This document shows, piece after piece, positions 4,970-17,973 of a stretch of DNA of 64,000 nt. The notes under the pieces are model-generated. The model was given only the letters and a program-made list of their open reading frames with translations, ran no database searches and was not told the DNA's origin. Each line of letters starts with the position of its first letter. Positions within the stretch are counted from its first letter, which is position 1. The stretch covers positions 435,573 through 499,572 of the IMG/VR virus record IMGVR_UViG_3300049988_000286. One strand, given 5' to 3'. The position numbers were made by a program, and so were the translations under genes. Origin of the DNA: a virus. Lineage: Duplodnaviria; Caudoviricetes.

Positions 4970-5003
4970 CCCGGCATTGATCCGCGTCAGTAAAGGATTG
5001 TAT

Positions 5004-5543
5004 ATGAACGACTTTTCATCAATCCCTACGCTTTCCGAGGTGCGTCTCCTCCCCGATACCCATGCCATGCTCGCCGAACGACAGCCGGTCTTCGATTTCA
5101 CCCAAGACGGCAAAGATGCAGCAAAGCTGGCCGATCTTCTCACCGCCGCAATGCTGCGCTTCGGCGGAATCGGTCTTGCCGCCAACCAGATCGGTATTCC
5201 CACTCGCGCGTTCGCGATGATGATGCACGATCGCCCGGTTGTCCTGTTCAACCCTGTTTTGCTTGAACTCGACGCAGAGACGGTATCGTTAGAGGAGGGC
5301 TGCTTGACCTTCCCTGATCTCTTCCTCAACATCGCGCGGCCACGGGGTTGTCGCGTCATCTACCACGATCCCACTGGTCAACGCACCAACGATGTCCTTG
5401 ACGGCTGGGATGCACGCGTCGCCATGCATGAGATCGATCATCTTGATGGCGTGGTATTTACGAGCAAGGCCTCCCGCCTTCATCTCCAGATGCAACGAGA
5501 GCGTCTTCGCAAGGCGAAGAAGAAGGCTGCGCGTCGCAAATGA
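5004..5543 (+). CDS. def: Peptide deformylase
   Basis: All three PDF motifs: GIGLAANQ, EGCLT, HEIDHLDG; SD-like AAGGA upstream of ATG 5004. Confidence 0.93.
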   Translation: MNDFSSIPTLSEVRLLPDTHAMLAERQPVFDFTQDGKDAAKLADLLTAAMLRFGGIGLAANQIGIPTRAFAMMMHDRPVVLFNPVLLELDAETVSLEEGCLTFPDLFLNIARPRGCRVIYHDPTGQRTNDVLDGWDARVAMHEIDHLDGVVFTSKASRLHLQMQRERLRKAKKKAARRK

Positions 5544-6168: not shown

Positions 6169-6705
6169 ATGCGCCTTGCCCTCCTCGCCATTCTGCTACT
6201 CACGGGTTGCACCACCACTAGGGTGACTCTTCCCCAGCGTAGTGCCACCGAACAACTCCTCATCAGCGAAGCCGCCGAAGCTGCTGCTGTCGCGATCCAC
6301 CTCAATCTCGGCTCTCGCAAAGCTTTCCTCGATACCACCAACTTCGAGGGGGTGGATGCCCGCTACGCCATGTCGGCGATCCGGGAATCCCTGCTACGGC
6401 AGGGTAATGCGATCGTTGACAACCGTGACCTCGCCGATACCATCATTGAGGTGAGGGCAGGAGCGCTATCGATAGACAGTGCCACAAAGGTGCTCGGTAT
6501 TCCGAGCGTCGATGTCCCTCGCTTCTTTATCCCCGGCCTCAACATCGTTTCGCGCACCCGCAACACCGGCGTGGCCCGCTTCTCACTCTTTGCCTACGAT
6601 CGCGCTACCGGGAAACTGGTAGCCTTGGTGGCACCGGTGACCGGTTACAGCCGCCGTGACACCAAATCGTTTGGGAGCGTCATCGCGTGGAGCGCGCAGC
6701 GGTGA
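6169..6705 (+). CDS. Lipoprotein under a late promoter
   Basis: Signal peptide with lipobox LLTG-C; TAAATA (6159-6164) 4 nt before ATG. Confidence 0.7.
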   Translation: MRLALLAILLLTGCTTTRVTLPQRSATEQLLISEAAEAAAVAIHLNLGSRKAFLDTTNFEGVDARYAMSAIRESLLRQGNAIVDNRDLADTIIEVRAGALSIDSATKVLGIPSVDVPRFFIPGLNIVSRTRNTGVARFSLFAYDRATGKLVALVAPVTGYSRRDTKSFGSVIAWSAQR

Positions 6706-7523
6706 TGCGTGACCTCATCAATCTGATCGAGGGGGCGGGCGTCACCTACCGGGTTTCACAAGGACCAGACACCTACCGCTTCATTTACGATAATCATCCC
6801 AGCGTCTTCCATGACAAGAGGATCAAGTACTTTGATCCCAAGGAGAGCGTGAGGGAGATTCACGTGATCGCAGAAATGGGTGATCTCGTAATCGGCATGG
6901 CGGGAATGCAAGTCAATCCGCATGATACGGAGCAACTCTGGATTAAGTTCATTTCGGTCGATCCCGCCTATCAAGGGCGCGGCATCGGCAAGACTCTCCT
7001 GCGCCACATCTACCTCTATGCTGATGAGCATGGCTTCAAGATGGCACCGGGGAGTTTCTCACCGGAGGGAGAGCGTTTACGCCATCTTCATGATGAATGG
7101 GATAAGGAATTCCCACGCGTCGCCTATGACCGTGACAAGAACGGTAACTACATGAACTCCAAGGGTCAGATCGTCCGCATGAACGAGGGTCATTCGTGGA
7201 GCCAGTGGGTGCGGCCCGGCGACGAGATGGTCACCATCGATGTCGAGAAGGTCAGGGCATCATGGGCGCTCGACCGAGACTTCTATTTCGATGATGGTGA
7301 CCACCCCAACGCGATCCGGGGACGGGTGTCTCGTTTCAACCAATGGCTGGAGCGCGGCGAAGCAATCGGCTTGCCTGAACTGTGCCTCAATCCATCCGGG
7401 GAGATTACCTTCATCAACGGTCGCCATCGGTTCGTGGCGCTGATGCAACGCGGCGTCGAGAGTCTCCCCGTCGCGGTTCCGGTAGATCAGGCTGACGAGT
7501 TTCGTCTGCGGTTCGGAAAATAG
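6705..7523 (+). CDS. GNAT acetyltransferase fused to a ParB/Srx-like domain
   Basis: Start MRDLINLIEG (TGATG overlap); GNAT motif A VDPAYQGRGIGKTLL; C-terminal INGRHRFVAL ParB-like motif. Confidence 0.7.
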   Translation: MRDLINLIEGAGVTYRVSQGPDTYRFIYDNHPSVFHDKRIKYFDPKESVREIHVIAEMGDLVIGMAGMQVNPHDTEQLWIKFISVDPAYQGRGIGKTLLRHIYLYADEHGFKMAPGSFSPEGERLRHLHDEWDKEFPRVAYDRDKNGNYMNSKGQIVRMNEGHSWSQWVRPGDEMVTIDVEKVRASWALDRDFYFDDGDHPNAIRGRVSRFNQWLERGEAIGLPELCLNPSGEITFINGRHRFVALMQRGVESLPVAVPVDQADEFRLRFGK

Positions 7524-7524
7524 T

Positions 7525-7557
7525 TGTTGACACCCAAAAGCTCGTGTGAGATAAATA
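7525..7557 (+). promoter_or_regulatory. Promoter of the Tyr/His tRNA cluster (TTGACA plus ATAAATA)
   Basis: TGTTGACACCC-N15-ATAAATA; same architecture at 18108-18140 on the minus strand. Confidence 0.7.
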
Positions 7558-7562
7558 CTCCT

Positions 7563-7607
7563 ATGAACACGCAGAGCCATCACACCTATTATCATTACCA
7601 CGCGTAA
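7563..7607 (+). CDS. His/Tyr-rich leader peptide MNTQSHHTYYHYHA
   Basis: ATG 5 nt after TAAATA; 7 of the last 9 codons are His or Tyr; followed by alternative hairpins and Tyr/His tRNAs. Confidence 0.7.
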   Translation: MNTQSHHTYYHYHA

Positions 7608-7643
7608 GCGGGGTCGTGGTAACGCGTCCTCGTTTCGGGGACG
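7595..7643 (+). promoter_or_regulatory. Attenuator-like alternative hairpins
   Basis: 1:2 TTACCACG(7595-7602)/CGTGGTAA(7615-7622); 2:3 CGGGGTCGTG-GTAA-CGCGTCCTCG (7609-7632); 3:4 CGTCCTCG/CGGGGACG (7625-7643). No U-tract after 3:4. Confidence 0.55.
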
Positions 7644-7728
7644 ATGAAGGTGTGAAAGAGCCAGCGTGGCACTCTCCCCATAGTTGAACCCGCGAAGACG
7701 CAGATGATTTGCGTATCATGTTGCTAGT

Positions 7729-7812
7729 GGGTCGGCTGGACACGAGTGAGTCCACCTGACTGTAAATCAGACGCTTTGGCTGTGAGGGTGCAAATTCCTT
7801 CCCGGCCCACCA
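7729..7812 (+). tRNA. tRNA-Tyr(GTA)
   Basis: Acceptor GGGTCGG/CCGGCCC, A73, encoded CCA, anticodon loop CTGTAAA, long variable arm; T-loop reads TGCAAATT rather than TTCRANT. Confidence 0.85.
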
Positions 7813-7837
7813 AGCAACCAAAGAACAGTGATCAGGT

Positions 7838-7911
7838 GCGGCCGAGGCTGACTTGGATGAGGCGCGCGGTTGTGATCCGCGAGATAGTGAGTTCGAACCT
7901 CACCGGTCGCC
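7838..7911 (+). tRNA. tRNA-His(GTG), copy 1
   Basis: Acceptor GCGGCCG/CGGTCGC, anticodon arm CGCGG-TTGTGAT-CCGCG, T arm GTGAG-TTCGAAC-CTCAC; -1 base is T, C73, CCA not encoded. Confidence 0.85.
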
Positions 7912-7930
7912 CCTGAACACTGTTCACCTT

Positions 7931-8024
7931 GGGAGGTGCCCCCGCTCGCCGGTTGTAACCCGGTGGTCTCTAATAAGGGTGGGAAGCATTGAGGCGATGG
8001 GTGCAATTCCTACACCTCCCACCA
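7931..8024 (+). ncRNA. Atypical D-armless tRNA-like RNA with GTA anticodon
   Basis: 8-bp acceptor GGGAGGTG/CACCTCCC plus ACCA, 4-bp T stem, arm GCCGG-TTGTAAC-CCGGT, 9-nt linker instead of a D arm, ~33-nt variable region. Confidence 0.65.
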
Positions 8025-8027
8025 CGT

Positions 8028-8102
8028 GGCGTTGGTAGCTCAATGGTAGAGCGCTCGATTGTGGATCGAGATACGCGGGTTCGATCCCCGTCCTTCGCCC
8101 CA
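8028..8102 (+). tRNA. tRNA-His(GTG), copy 2
   Basis: G-1:C73, D arm TAGCTCAATGGTAGAGC, anticodon arm CTCGA-TTGTGGA-TCGAG, GGTTCGATCC T arm, CCA; two U-U mismatches in the acceptor stem. Confidence 0.88.
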
Positions 8103-8130
8103 GACCTTCTAACAAGTCCCTAAATATGTC

Positions 8131-8508
8131 ATGCGCAACTTCATCGATATCGTCAACGAAACTGTTATGTCGGATTCCGACACCTACTATTATGTTGTTG
8201 GGAAGGTGCGCGACCTCTATACGATGAGGGCAACAATCGACGGCTATTGCGAAGATGGCGTGATCTACCTCGATCTTATTTCGGTAGACGATGCCGGTAA
8301 CGGTGTCGGCACAGAGATGATGAAGGAAATATGCTTCAACGCGGATGATCACCACATCGCCATAGAGCTTGAAGCGGGATCACACGGTCGAGGCAATATC
8401 AGTCAGAGAAAGCTGGAAGATTGGTATGGCCGGTTTGGTTTCAAGAAAACTGGCGCGGTCTCAAGCGAAGACCATCCCTATATGCGCAGAGAACCCTCTG
8501 CTACTTAA
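8131..8508 (+). CDS. GNAT-family acetyltransferase with capsid-targeting-like N-terminus
   Basis: MRNFIDIVNE start 4 nt after TAAATA; DAGNGVGTEMM motif A and WYGRFGF. Confidence 0.7.
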   Translation: MRNFIDIVNETVMSDSDTYYYVVGKVRDLYTMRATIDGYCEDGVIYLDLISVDDAGNGVGTEMMKEICFNADDHHIAIELEAGSHGRGNISQRKLEDWYGRFGFKKTGAVSSEDHPYMRREPSAT

Positions 8509-14940: not shown

Positions 14941-16310
14941 TAAAGAGATATAGGATGATCTTCAAAACCTTCAAGTACCCAAGCGGTTCTACTATTAACA
15001 TAAGGGTCTACACCAGTGATGACTTGCTGTGACATCCTCATCTTCTTCGGGAGATCAGTATAGATACTGACCGGTGGGCGTGCGTGATACAGTTCCTTCT
15101 TCATCTCGTAGGTGGGCATGAAGAAACGCTGTGTTCCACGCGCGCGCATCTTGCGAATGAAGTCGAGCAGCATGGCTTCGCTCAACCCTTTCAGCTTCTG
15201 ATTGACCTCCGGCTCCATGATCTTCGGCAGATCGGTTTGCACCTCATCGATCCAGCAATCGCGTCCGAAGAGCGTGAAACGCACCCAGCCCAGAGCAACG
15301 ACGGTATAACGTTCATCGCCTCCACCAAGCGACAGACCAGCCTTTGGTGGTTTGGGTGCGGCGGGTGGCTTGGGGTGGTTGCTCGCATAGTGGTAATTGA
15401 CCAGCGCTTTGCAATCGGGGATCGAGAGATCAAGGCCGTCTTTGATTGCTTCCACCGGGAGACCGAAGACACAGGCGATGTTCTTACGATCAAGGAAGAT
15501 ACGCTGATCGTCCTGACCATCCATCTTCCATTCGACGATGTAGTTGCGCGCCGATTTAACCACTCGCTCGATCGTCGTGGTCTCACTCGGGTTAGCTCGC
15601 AGATCATCGATTGAGATGTCTCGACCCCCGAGTTGTTTCACCAACGCGGAGAAGAATGGAGTGTTGCCCCAGCGCTGCTGCTTCAATTCCTTGACCGAGA
15701 TGCTCTCGCGATCGTTGGTTTCGAACCAGCGCATCAGGGCGAGTTGATCTTGGTTCAAGCCCGCGAGCGATTTGCGTTCGCCCTGACGAGGAAGGCGGTG
15801 CCCGCGTGAGAACTCGCGGCGACGGTCCTCGTTCTGCTTATCGAACAGCGTTTGAAGAGTGGTGTCGAAGTTGGAGAGTTGGCGCAAAACATGGATGTTG
15901 CCGGGAAACTCCTCAAACGCCTCACGCTGCAACTCGACGGGGATACGATCGAACATCTCACACGTCTGACGAATATTACGCTTCATCGCGATTGCGACAA
16001 CATCGAACGGGATCGGGCGCTTGACCTTGTACAGGACAGTCGGTCCGAATTTTTCAACTGCGAGTCGGAGACAAGTATCGCTAGGCTCCGGCAGGTATTC
16101 CAAAGCGGAAGCCCAGTTCTCACACGCGTATTCCTGTGCTTCCTCGTGGGGGTTCTTGATCGCTCGGATCAGCGCCACATTGCGACCGAGAGCAATCATC
16201 TGCACTTGCCTCGACGGCGCTTCCATATGACGAATATTGAAGGGATCGGCGTAAATGAGCGCGAGTTGCTCCGCCGTTGATTCTGACTGCTCGAAGATGG
16301 TTGAACGCAT
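14940..16310 (-). CDS. Multi-domain protein with capsid-targeting-like N-terminus
   Basis: MRSTIFEQ start 4 nt after TAAATA; N-terminal helical repeats; C-terminal WVRF...WIDEVQTD motif. Confidence 0.55.
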   Translation of the reverse strand: MRSTIFEQSESTAEQLALIYADPFNIRHMEAPSRQVQMIALGRNVALIRAIKNPHEEAQEYACENWASALEYLPEPSDTCLRLAVEKFGPTVLYKVKRPIPFDVVAIAMKRNIRQTCEMFDRIPVELQREAFEEFPGNIHVLRQLSNFDTTLQTLFDKQNEDRRREFSRGHRLPRQGERKSLAGLNQDQLALMRWFETNDRESISVKELKQQRWGNTPFFSALVKQLGGRDISIDDLRANPSETTTIERVVKSARNYIVEWKMDGQDDQRIFLDRKNIACVFGLPVEAIKDGLDLSIPDCKALVNYHYASNHPKPPAAPKPPKAGLSLGGGDERYTVVALGWVRFTLFGRDCWIDEVQTDLPKIMEPEVNQKLKGLSEAMLLDFIRKMRARGTQRFFMPTYEMKKELYHARPPVSIYTDLPKKMRMSQQVITGVDPYVNSRTAWVLEGFEDHPISL

Positions 16311-17803: not shown

Positions 17804-17888
17804 TGGTCCCCCGGACGAGAATCGAACTCGCTGATGCTTTCGCAAACAGGCGTGAGAAACCTGCGTCCTGCCATTAGACTTCCGGGGG
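17804..17888 (-). tRNA. tRNA-Glu(CTC) with long variable arm
   Basis: Acceptor CCCCCGG/CCGGGGG, A73, CCA; anticodon arm CAGGT-TTCTCAC-GCCTG; variable arm containing TGC-GAAA-GCA; T arm GCGAG-TTCGATT-CTCGT. Confidence 0.85.
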
Positions 17889-17889
17889 A

Positions 17890-17973
17890 TGGCCGCGCTG
17901 ACGGGAATCGAACCCGCTTCTGCTTTCGCAACAGGAGTGAAAGTCCTGCGTCCGCCCATTAGACTTCAGCGCG
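17890..17973 (-). tRNA. tRNA-Glu(TTC) with long variable arm
   Basis: Acceptor CGCGCTG/CAGCGCG, G73, CCA; anticodon arm CAGGA-CTTTCAC-TCCTG; variable arm TGC-GAAA-GCA; T arm GCGGG-TTCGATT-CCCGT. Confidence 0.85.

Follow-up and report, generated by a model that had tools for sequence, protein, structure and literature searches.

A leaderless His/Tyr-rich ORF precedes the His and Tyr tRNA genes of a large phage and is a probable ribosome-mediated attenuator

We found that the only His and Tyr tRNA genes of a 499,572-bp phage genome from a leaf metagenome are preceded by a 14-codon ORF rich in His and Tyr codons, and that leaders matched in the same way to the tRNA genes behind them occur elsewhere in the genome and in other phages. 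The codon-matched leader is a real, selected feature, and we consider it probable that it works as a ribosome-mediated attenuator that matches the supply of His and Tyr tRNAs to demand. Coordinates given without further qualification refer to the window, the final 64 kb of the genome.

The His/Tyr leader and its tRNA genes

The leader ORF (7563 to 7607, + strand) lies between the promoter (7527 to 7557) and the first tRNA gene (7729) and consists of 14 codons and a TAA stop codon (7605 to 7607), encoding the peptide MNTQSHHTYYHYHA. The original prediction had placed His or Tyr in seven of the last nine codons of this ORF, and we rederived the same ORF and the same count. The control codons, CAT CAC (ACC) TAT TAT CAT TAC CAC, span 7578 to 7601 (+), and all seven of the His and Tyr codons are cognate to the anticodons GTG and GTA. 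His and Tyr make up 7 of the 13 codons after the ATG, compared with 5.3% of codons in the long ORFs of the phage, a bias that exceeds chance (binomial p = 1.4e-6). A stretch with seven His or Tyr codons in nine is the only one among the ~1e6 nine-codon windows in the six frames of the whole genome, and it is found 120 nt upstream of the only His and Tyr tRNA genes that the genome has.

A -35-like hexamer, TTGACA, occupies 7527 to 7532 (+) and is followed after 17 bases by the GATAAATA box (7550 to 7557, +), which represents the TAAATA promoter element of this phage and within which lies a sigma-70-like -10 element (GATAAA), 17 nt 3' of the -35 hexamer. The distance from the TAAATA box to the leader ATG (7563) is 5 nt, there is no Shine-Dalgarno sequence before that ATG, and the ATG coincides with the predicted transcript start, an arrangement shared by most genes of the phage. 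In the whole genome, 103 of the 171 TAAATA sites have an ATG 4 to 5 nt downstream, and 85 of these 103 open ORFs of at least 80 amino acids; control hexamers lacked this pattern. TAAATA-N4/5-ATG is the standard gene start in this phage, used by ~85 leaderless protein genes, and the leader ORF, with a start geometry identical to theirs, is presumably translated. The combination with the -35 hexamer is more restricted. All eight genomic sites with TTGAC[AG]-N17-20-TAAATA precede stable-RNA genes (the tmRNA gene and seven tRNA operons), and this dual promoter occurs in the genome only upstream of stable-RNA operons. We take the TAAATA box to be similar to the T4 late promoter, TATAAATA.

Many of the genes with a TAAATA start encode paralogous proteins that begin MRNWINLVE, MRDLINL, or MRNFIDI. 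The tmRNA gene, which lies outside the window (genome positions 15556 to 15913, +), has a TTGACA and TAAATA promoter like those of the tRNA operons. ARAGORN found 41 tRNA genes and the tmRNA gene in the whole genome, and two tRNAs with a CTA (amber-reading) anticodon also lie outside the window, at genome positions 102238 to 102314 (+) and 106351 to 106425 (-). A peptide deformylase gene is located upstream of the His/Tyr operon, as it is in CcrColossus, Kabachok, Kikimora, and Bajun, and GNAT-type acetyltransferase genes lie on both sides of the operon, the upstream match being clear and the downstream match weak (these flanking genes are at 4977 to 5543, 6687 to 7523, and 8131 to 8508). The upstream GNAT protein led to no relatives among the viral contigs searched.

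Four RNA genes follow the leader and form a separate unit, since the protein gene after them starts independently at a TAAATA-N4-ATG of its own (8121 to 8133). ARAGORN reported two genes in the cluster, both for tRNA-His(GTG): one at 7838 to 7913 (+; Rfam, 43.1 bits) and one with an encoded CCA at 8029 to 8102 (+; Rfam, 61.3 bits). The first gene of the cluster, at 7729 to 7812 (+), has its GTA anticodon in a 7-nt loop, encodes CCA at the 3' end, and combines a long variable arm with an 8-nt T loop. Against the Rfam tRNA model, 7729 to 7809 scored 29.2 bits versus a cutoff of 29, and 7729 to 7812 scored 101 bits against a family model of phage tRNA-Tyr. In the alignment of that family (13 distinct members), the cloverleaf is 94.6% paired, 18 of its 23 pairs have changed on both sides, and the GTA anticodon is invariant. 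Because the family cloverleaf covaries and the copy in the window scores 101 bits, we accept 7729 to 7812 as tRNA-Tyr on sequence grounds. Search programs miss this family because its T loop has an atypical 8 nt. Its members are found in Caulobacter, Brevundimonas, and Sphingobium phages and in IMG/VR contigs, and in most records they are unannotated; examples are the copies in CcrColossus (L001, 1502 to 1587), Lacusarx (L002, 1496 to 1579), Kabachok (L003, 1502 to 1585), and CcrSC (L007, 3689 to 3772). The phiCbK genomics paper had stated that no phiCbK-like phage has a tRNA-Tyr (PMC3556154).

The third element of the cluster (7931 to 8024, +) carries GTA in an anticodon-type loop, UUGUAAC. 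It combines an 8-bp acceptor helix and a 3' ACCA with an anticodon-type hairpin, a T-like arm, and a long variable region but lacks a D stem, and it gave weak scores with both models tried (16 bits with the Rfam tRNA-Sec model over 7931 to 8020 and 13 bits with the Tyr family model). No homologue was found in the phage collection, and the element is kept in related contigs X3 to X5. We regard it as a candidate, atypical GTA tRNA-like element. The order of anticodons originally read from this cluster, GTA, GTG, GTA (atypical), GTG, was recovered in all four positions. Elsewhere in the genome, many tRNAs of isotypes that normally have a short variable arm (Glu, Asn, Gln, Arg, Cys, Met, and Ile) are 84 to 95 nt long and have an extra small hairpin in the variable region (for example, at 17804 to 17973), and long Lys, Asn, and Arg tRNAs are also present in phiCbK group records.

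Related contigs came from four other metagenomes (DNA runs) and were ~94 to 99% identical over the region. A block from 7546 to 7682 (+) has no listed difference in four related contigs, and both of its flanks are variable. In the longest relative (X5), there are at least 21 differences in 7442 to 7545 and none among those listed in 7546 to 7682, and differences resume at 7683. The promoter box, the ORF, and the hairpins described below all fall in this block and are thus under constraint at the level of sequence. In relative X3, the leader and the atypical GTA element are kept, and 7707 to 7929, with the Tyr gene and the first His gene, is replaced by 109 other bases.

Codon-matched leaders in the genome and in other phages

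Inspection of the region upstream of every tRNA cluster in the genome yielded six further leaders, five of them through promoter geometry alone. A leader rich in Val, Ala, Gly, Arg, and Asn codons (genome position 25205, +) precedes Gly, Gly, Arg, Arg, Val, Asn, Ala, and Asn tRNAs; one ending QRQQR (68422, -) precedes two tRNA-Gln genes; one ending RKRKRL (267650, +) precedes three tRNA-Lys genes; and one with a 12-codon Leu/Pro run (350311, +) precedes seven Leu and Pro tRNAs. The leader MNTTTSSTTISWSITFG (403535, -) stands before genes for Ile, a tRNA with a four-base anticodon, Thr, Thr, and three Ser tRNAs; ARAGORN gave the four-base anticodon as TCCA, and we read this tRNA as Trp (CCA). 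The sixth, MNTTYTLMERERSIG, lies in the window (18102 to 18055, -) before two tRNA-Glu genes (TTC and CTC; 17804 to 17973, -). It has TTGACG and TAAATA elements, an ATG AAC ACG start, and two GAA codons, and behind it lie a GC hairpin and then a U-rich stretch.

When the seven leaders were scored against the amino acid set of each operon, the true pairing of leaders and operons ranked first among 5040 permutations, and nearly every anticodon in the seven pairs has a cognate codon in its own leader. The leaders for a single isotype (Glu, Lys, and Gln) have only two or three control codons each and are individually nonsignificant, and some tRNA genes (a Cys pair and singletons) have no leader. 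In the single-isotype leaders, the control codon alternates with Arg codons (QRQQR, RKRKR, and ERER) with no tRNA-Arg downstream; these Arg codons may supply GC-rich helix arms.

Leaders with the same relationship to their cargo were found in cultured phages at loci reached through the Tyr tRNA, where the common geometry is TTGACA-17-hexamer-7-ATG and each leader mirrors its own tRNA genes. The leaders of CcrColossus (L001:1285) and Kabachok (L003:1274) contain Tyr, Arg, Asn, Val, Gln, Ile, and Phe codons, and their cargo consists of Tyr, Val, Ile, Gln, and Asn tRNAs and an element with a GAA anticodon, with Arg in CcrColossus only; ARAGORN found no tRNA-Arg at the Kabachok locus. The GAA element, a conserved tRNA-like sequence after the Tyr gene (L001, 1588 to 1671; L003, 1586 to 1660), has an unusual T region, and its anticodon-type loop reads GAA (Phe); each of the two leaders has one Phe codon. 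The leaders of Lacusarx (L002:1240), XM05 (L004:154), and an IMG/VR contig (L012:5719) contain Thr, Gln, Leu, Cys, His, Tyr, Trp, and Ser codons and precede Ser, Tyr, Leu, Thr, His, Gln, Ser, Cys, and Trp tRNAs; L012 carries two additional leaders of this kind. In phiCbK, Ser, Leu, Ala, Thr, Lys, Pro, and His account for nearly all of the gp083 leader (L005:1692-1829), which precedes Pro, Lys, Leu, Ala, and Ser tRNAs. An Rfam search of phiCbK did not find the Thr and His tRNAs that this composition predicts and revealed only an extra Ser(GCU)-type tRNA-like element (L005, 3094 to 3176).

Brevundimonas phages are among the cultured phages with the codon match, and an unrelated AT-rich contig (L015) has it as well, with YLYWCPP encoded upstream of Trp, Pro, Tyr, and Cys tRNAs. 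In contig L026, the phiCbK-type leader contains an additional Cys codon, and this contig is alone in having a tRNA-Cys in that cluster. We assessed the match against random amino acid sets of equal size, taking the best of all upstream short ORFs. Most multi-isotype operons, in this genome as in other phages, reached an empirical p of <=0.005; single-isotype operons and single tRNA genes did not. The original prediction was to be refuted if leaders at homologous loci bore no relation to their tRNA cargo. This check came out in its favor, and in more than 15 independent pairs of leader and operon with unrelated sequences the codons of the leader reflect which tRNAs follow. The phiCbK-like, Lacusarx, and XM05 leaders resemble the His/Tyr leader in promoter-ATG geometry and in having the composition of their tRNA cargo, but they serve other tRNA sets, are longer, carry canonical terminators, and are not similar to it in sequence. 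Leaders of different phage groups close with a similar Asp-Gly-Gly tail (for example, VDDGGSVG and GDGGSEG; L012, oriented, ~717 to 810, and the phiCbK group), which may come from common ancestry or from a common demand of the RNA or the peptide.

Hairpin switching and its readout

The 3' half of the leader ORF lies inside three mutually exclusive predicted hairpins, with segment 1 in the control codons. Helices 1:2, 2:3, and 3:4 overlapping the leader had been part of the original prediction, and all three were found by folding. Hairpin A (1:2; 7589 to 7622, +; -13.8 kcal/mol) holds the stop codon in a GUAA loop and has an alternative 8-bp register that pairs 7595 to 7602 with 7615 to 7622. 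Hairpin B (2:3; 7608 to 7633, +; -15.1 kcal/mol) has a GUAA tetraloop and excludes both A and C, and hairpin C (3:4; 7625 to 7643, +; -10.9 kcal/mol) has 8 bp and a UUU loop. Farther downstream, AGGTGTGA (7648 to 7655, +) is a perfect complement of leader codons 7580 to 7587 and is predicted, in the absence of a ribosome, to form an outer helix enclosing A and C; the composite fold of the 8-bp outer helix (7580-7587/7648-7655) with A and C reaches -36 to -37 kcal/mol.

We imitated the ribosome footprint by masking stretches of the RNA before folding. In unmasked RNA, A and C formed inside the outer helix. When everything as far as 7606 was masked, to represent a ribosome halted on the His and Tyr codons, B became the minimum-energy fold and C was blocked, and masking up to 7610 or further, as for a ribosome at the stop codon, brought hairpin C back. 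The folding z-scores were modest (-1.3 to -2.65). The predicted topology is that of a classical attenuator.

The attenuator that we favor would work as follows. Transcription would start at or beside ATG 7563, and a ribosome would load on the leaderless 5' end and read 14 codons, 7 of which need tRNA-His or tRNA-Tyr. When these tRNAs are plentiful, the ribosome would reach the stop codon and cover segment 2, allowing the "off" structure, hairpin C, to form. Slow decoding of CAY and UAY codons, whether through high codon demand by the phage or because host tRNA is depleted, uncharged, or cleaved, would stall the ribosome over segment 1; segment 2 would then pair with segment 3 in hairpin B, C would be blocked, and the four downstream RNA genes would be expressed. 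The tRNA products would relieve the stall and so close a negative feedback loop. Induction as the direction of control is what the helix topology alone suggests, and the "off" role is a putative one for hairpin C, which has no canonical U tract.

The same design recurs in the phiCbK group. Across nine of its leaders, pairing is at least 90% in each of the helices 1:2, 2:3, and 3:4, all with compensatory changes, and helix 3:4 carries a U tract and is annotated as a terminator in the records. Since the helices covary and 3:4 has a U tract, the design appears to be a full attenuator in those phages. The covariation that had been suggested as a check on the His/Tyr locus is therefore present in the phiCbK group, whereas the His/Tyr leader itself is invariant among its relatives and shows no covariation.

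At the His/Tyr locus, hairpin C is followed by AUGAAGG with nothing U rich, in agreement with a caveat raised at the outset, and a terminator scan found no hairpin with a U tract between 7607 and 7729. With no U tract after C and no other terminator before the first tRNA gene, intrinsic termination at this locus is doubtful. An alternative is that His and Tyr decoding is sensed in the same way but read out by something other than termination, the compact fold (outer helix, A, and C) versus the B fold setting pausing, the action of a phage or host factor, or nuclease processing or stability of the precursor. The missing U tract speaks for such a readout, as does the fact that five of the seven leaders in this genome end in GC hairpins without one, only the Leu/Pro leader having a canonical terminator; the conserved extra 8-bp outer helix, which would be superfluous for a plain attenuator, and the extension of the conserved block to 7682 point the same way. 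However, the homologous designs of other phages and the Leu/Pro leader here do have canonical terminators, and cleavage upstream of the tRNAs would not obviously cut tRNA yield. We consider a readout of this kind rather unlikely.

The missing U tract had also suggested that a stalled or released ribosome might govern access of Rho to the leader RNA, a type of control known from tnaC-type leaders. The stretch from 7608 to 7728 is G rich (C/G, 0.7), strongly folded, and followed by tRNAs, which makes it a poor Rho substrate, and as it contains no C-rich, G-poor, unstructured segment, we rejected Rho-dependent attenuation as very improbable. The match of leader codons to tRNAs within attenuator-type helices, which was the core of the original prediction, is supported by six paralogous leaders in the same genome and by homologous or analogous leaders in other phages, and the Rho alternative attached to it is not favored.

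There is scarcely any likelihood that the ORF is untranslated and owes its His/Tyr character to RNA structure or chance, or that it encodes a small His/Tyr-rich peptide with a function of its own. The YAY repeats do form one arm of hairpin A, as a structural by-product would, but composition tracks tRNA identity in the independent pairs counted above, the top His/Tyr window of the genome is unique and adjoins the only His and Tyr tRNAs, and the start geometry is that of real genes. A chance ORF was rejected on the p value of the bias, the uniqueness of the window, and the leader-cargo match across loci. Direct sensing of tRNA by a T-box-type RNA without a ribosome is hardly credible at all: T-box elements too respond to tRNA status, but a series of in-frame codons behind a transcript-start ATG suits a ribosome, not a specifier loop, and the Rfam T-box model gave no match in 7300 to 8300 at E values up to 10, on which grounds we rejected it.

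Known attenuators and the use of phage tRNAs

tRNA genes are usually treated as constitutive or growth rate controlled, and why and when phages use theirs is still debated. Leader peptide transcription attenuators are familiar from amino acid operons of enterobacteria (trpL, hisL, pheL, and leuL and the multivalent thrL and ilv leaders). The His/Tyr leader shares with them a short ORF with runs of control codons and overlapping 1:2, 2:3, and 3:4 helices among which a stalled ribosome would select 2:3, and in answering to two amino acids it would be multivalent like thrL and ilvL. Unlike them, it fronts tRNA genes and not biosynthetic genes, lies on a leaderless mRNA, belongs to a phage, and has a 3:4 helix without a U tract. 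Because the controlled genes are tRNA genes, their products would act directly on the sensor. For aminoacyl-tRNA synthetase genes, control by the pheST attenuator and by T-box leaders is known, and T-box elements bind tRNA directly. There, too, part of the translation apparatus is controlled by the supply of one charged tRNA, but the targets are synthetases, and the His/Tyr leader has no T-box signature.

The nearest published item that we found is the leaderless polycysteine short ORFs of mycobacteria, which are Cys-responsive attenuators (bioRxiv 10.1101/834739). They too are leaderless, stand at the head of an operon, contain a run of codons for a single amino acid, and require no classical terminator, but their cargo is Cys metabolism protein genes in a bacterium, whereas here it is phage tRNAs. 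A full-text literature search that included the phiCbK and Lacusarx genome papers (PMC3556154 and PMC5648845) found no description of leader peptides or attenuators before tRNA genes, and the codon-matched leaders of phiCbK-like phages, Lacusarx, and XM05 are not annotated as such in their records or in those two papers.

A leader of this type is of practical use too, because one can predict from it which tRNAs are encoded by genes overlooked by search programs, as here with the tRNA-Tyr family reported absent in the phiCbK paper (PMC3556154). Targeting of queuosine-class tRNAs is not needed for the pattern, because leaders also serve Lys, Glu, Gln, Leu/Pro, Thr/Ser/Ile/Trp, and Gly/Arg/Val/Asn/Ala operons; the link to nucleases of that class (colicin E5 and PtuAB) that accompanied the original prediction is neither needed nor excluded by the data and is speculation. 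Tentatively, and with considerable reserve, we suggest that the leaders might be sensors, one per codon family, that make phage tRNAs an inducible answer to host tRNA loss (for example, through anticodon nucleases), with an undescribed attenuator readout at the loci without terminators. phiCbK and Caulobacter crescentus carry a textbook version of the design, which brings the idea within reach of bench work in a standard model. If the proposed attenuation is correct, a leader that reads the decoding speed of the codons served by its own tRNAs would give direct product feedback on translation capacity, and this would be compatible with both the codon demand and the counterdefense explanations of phage tRNAs.
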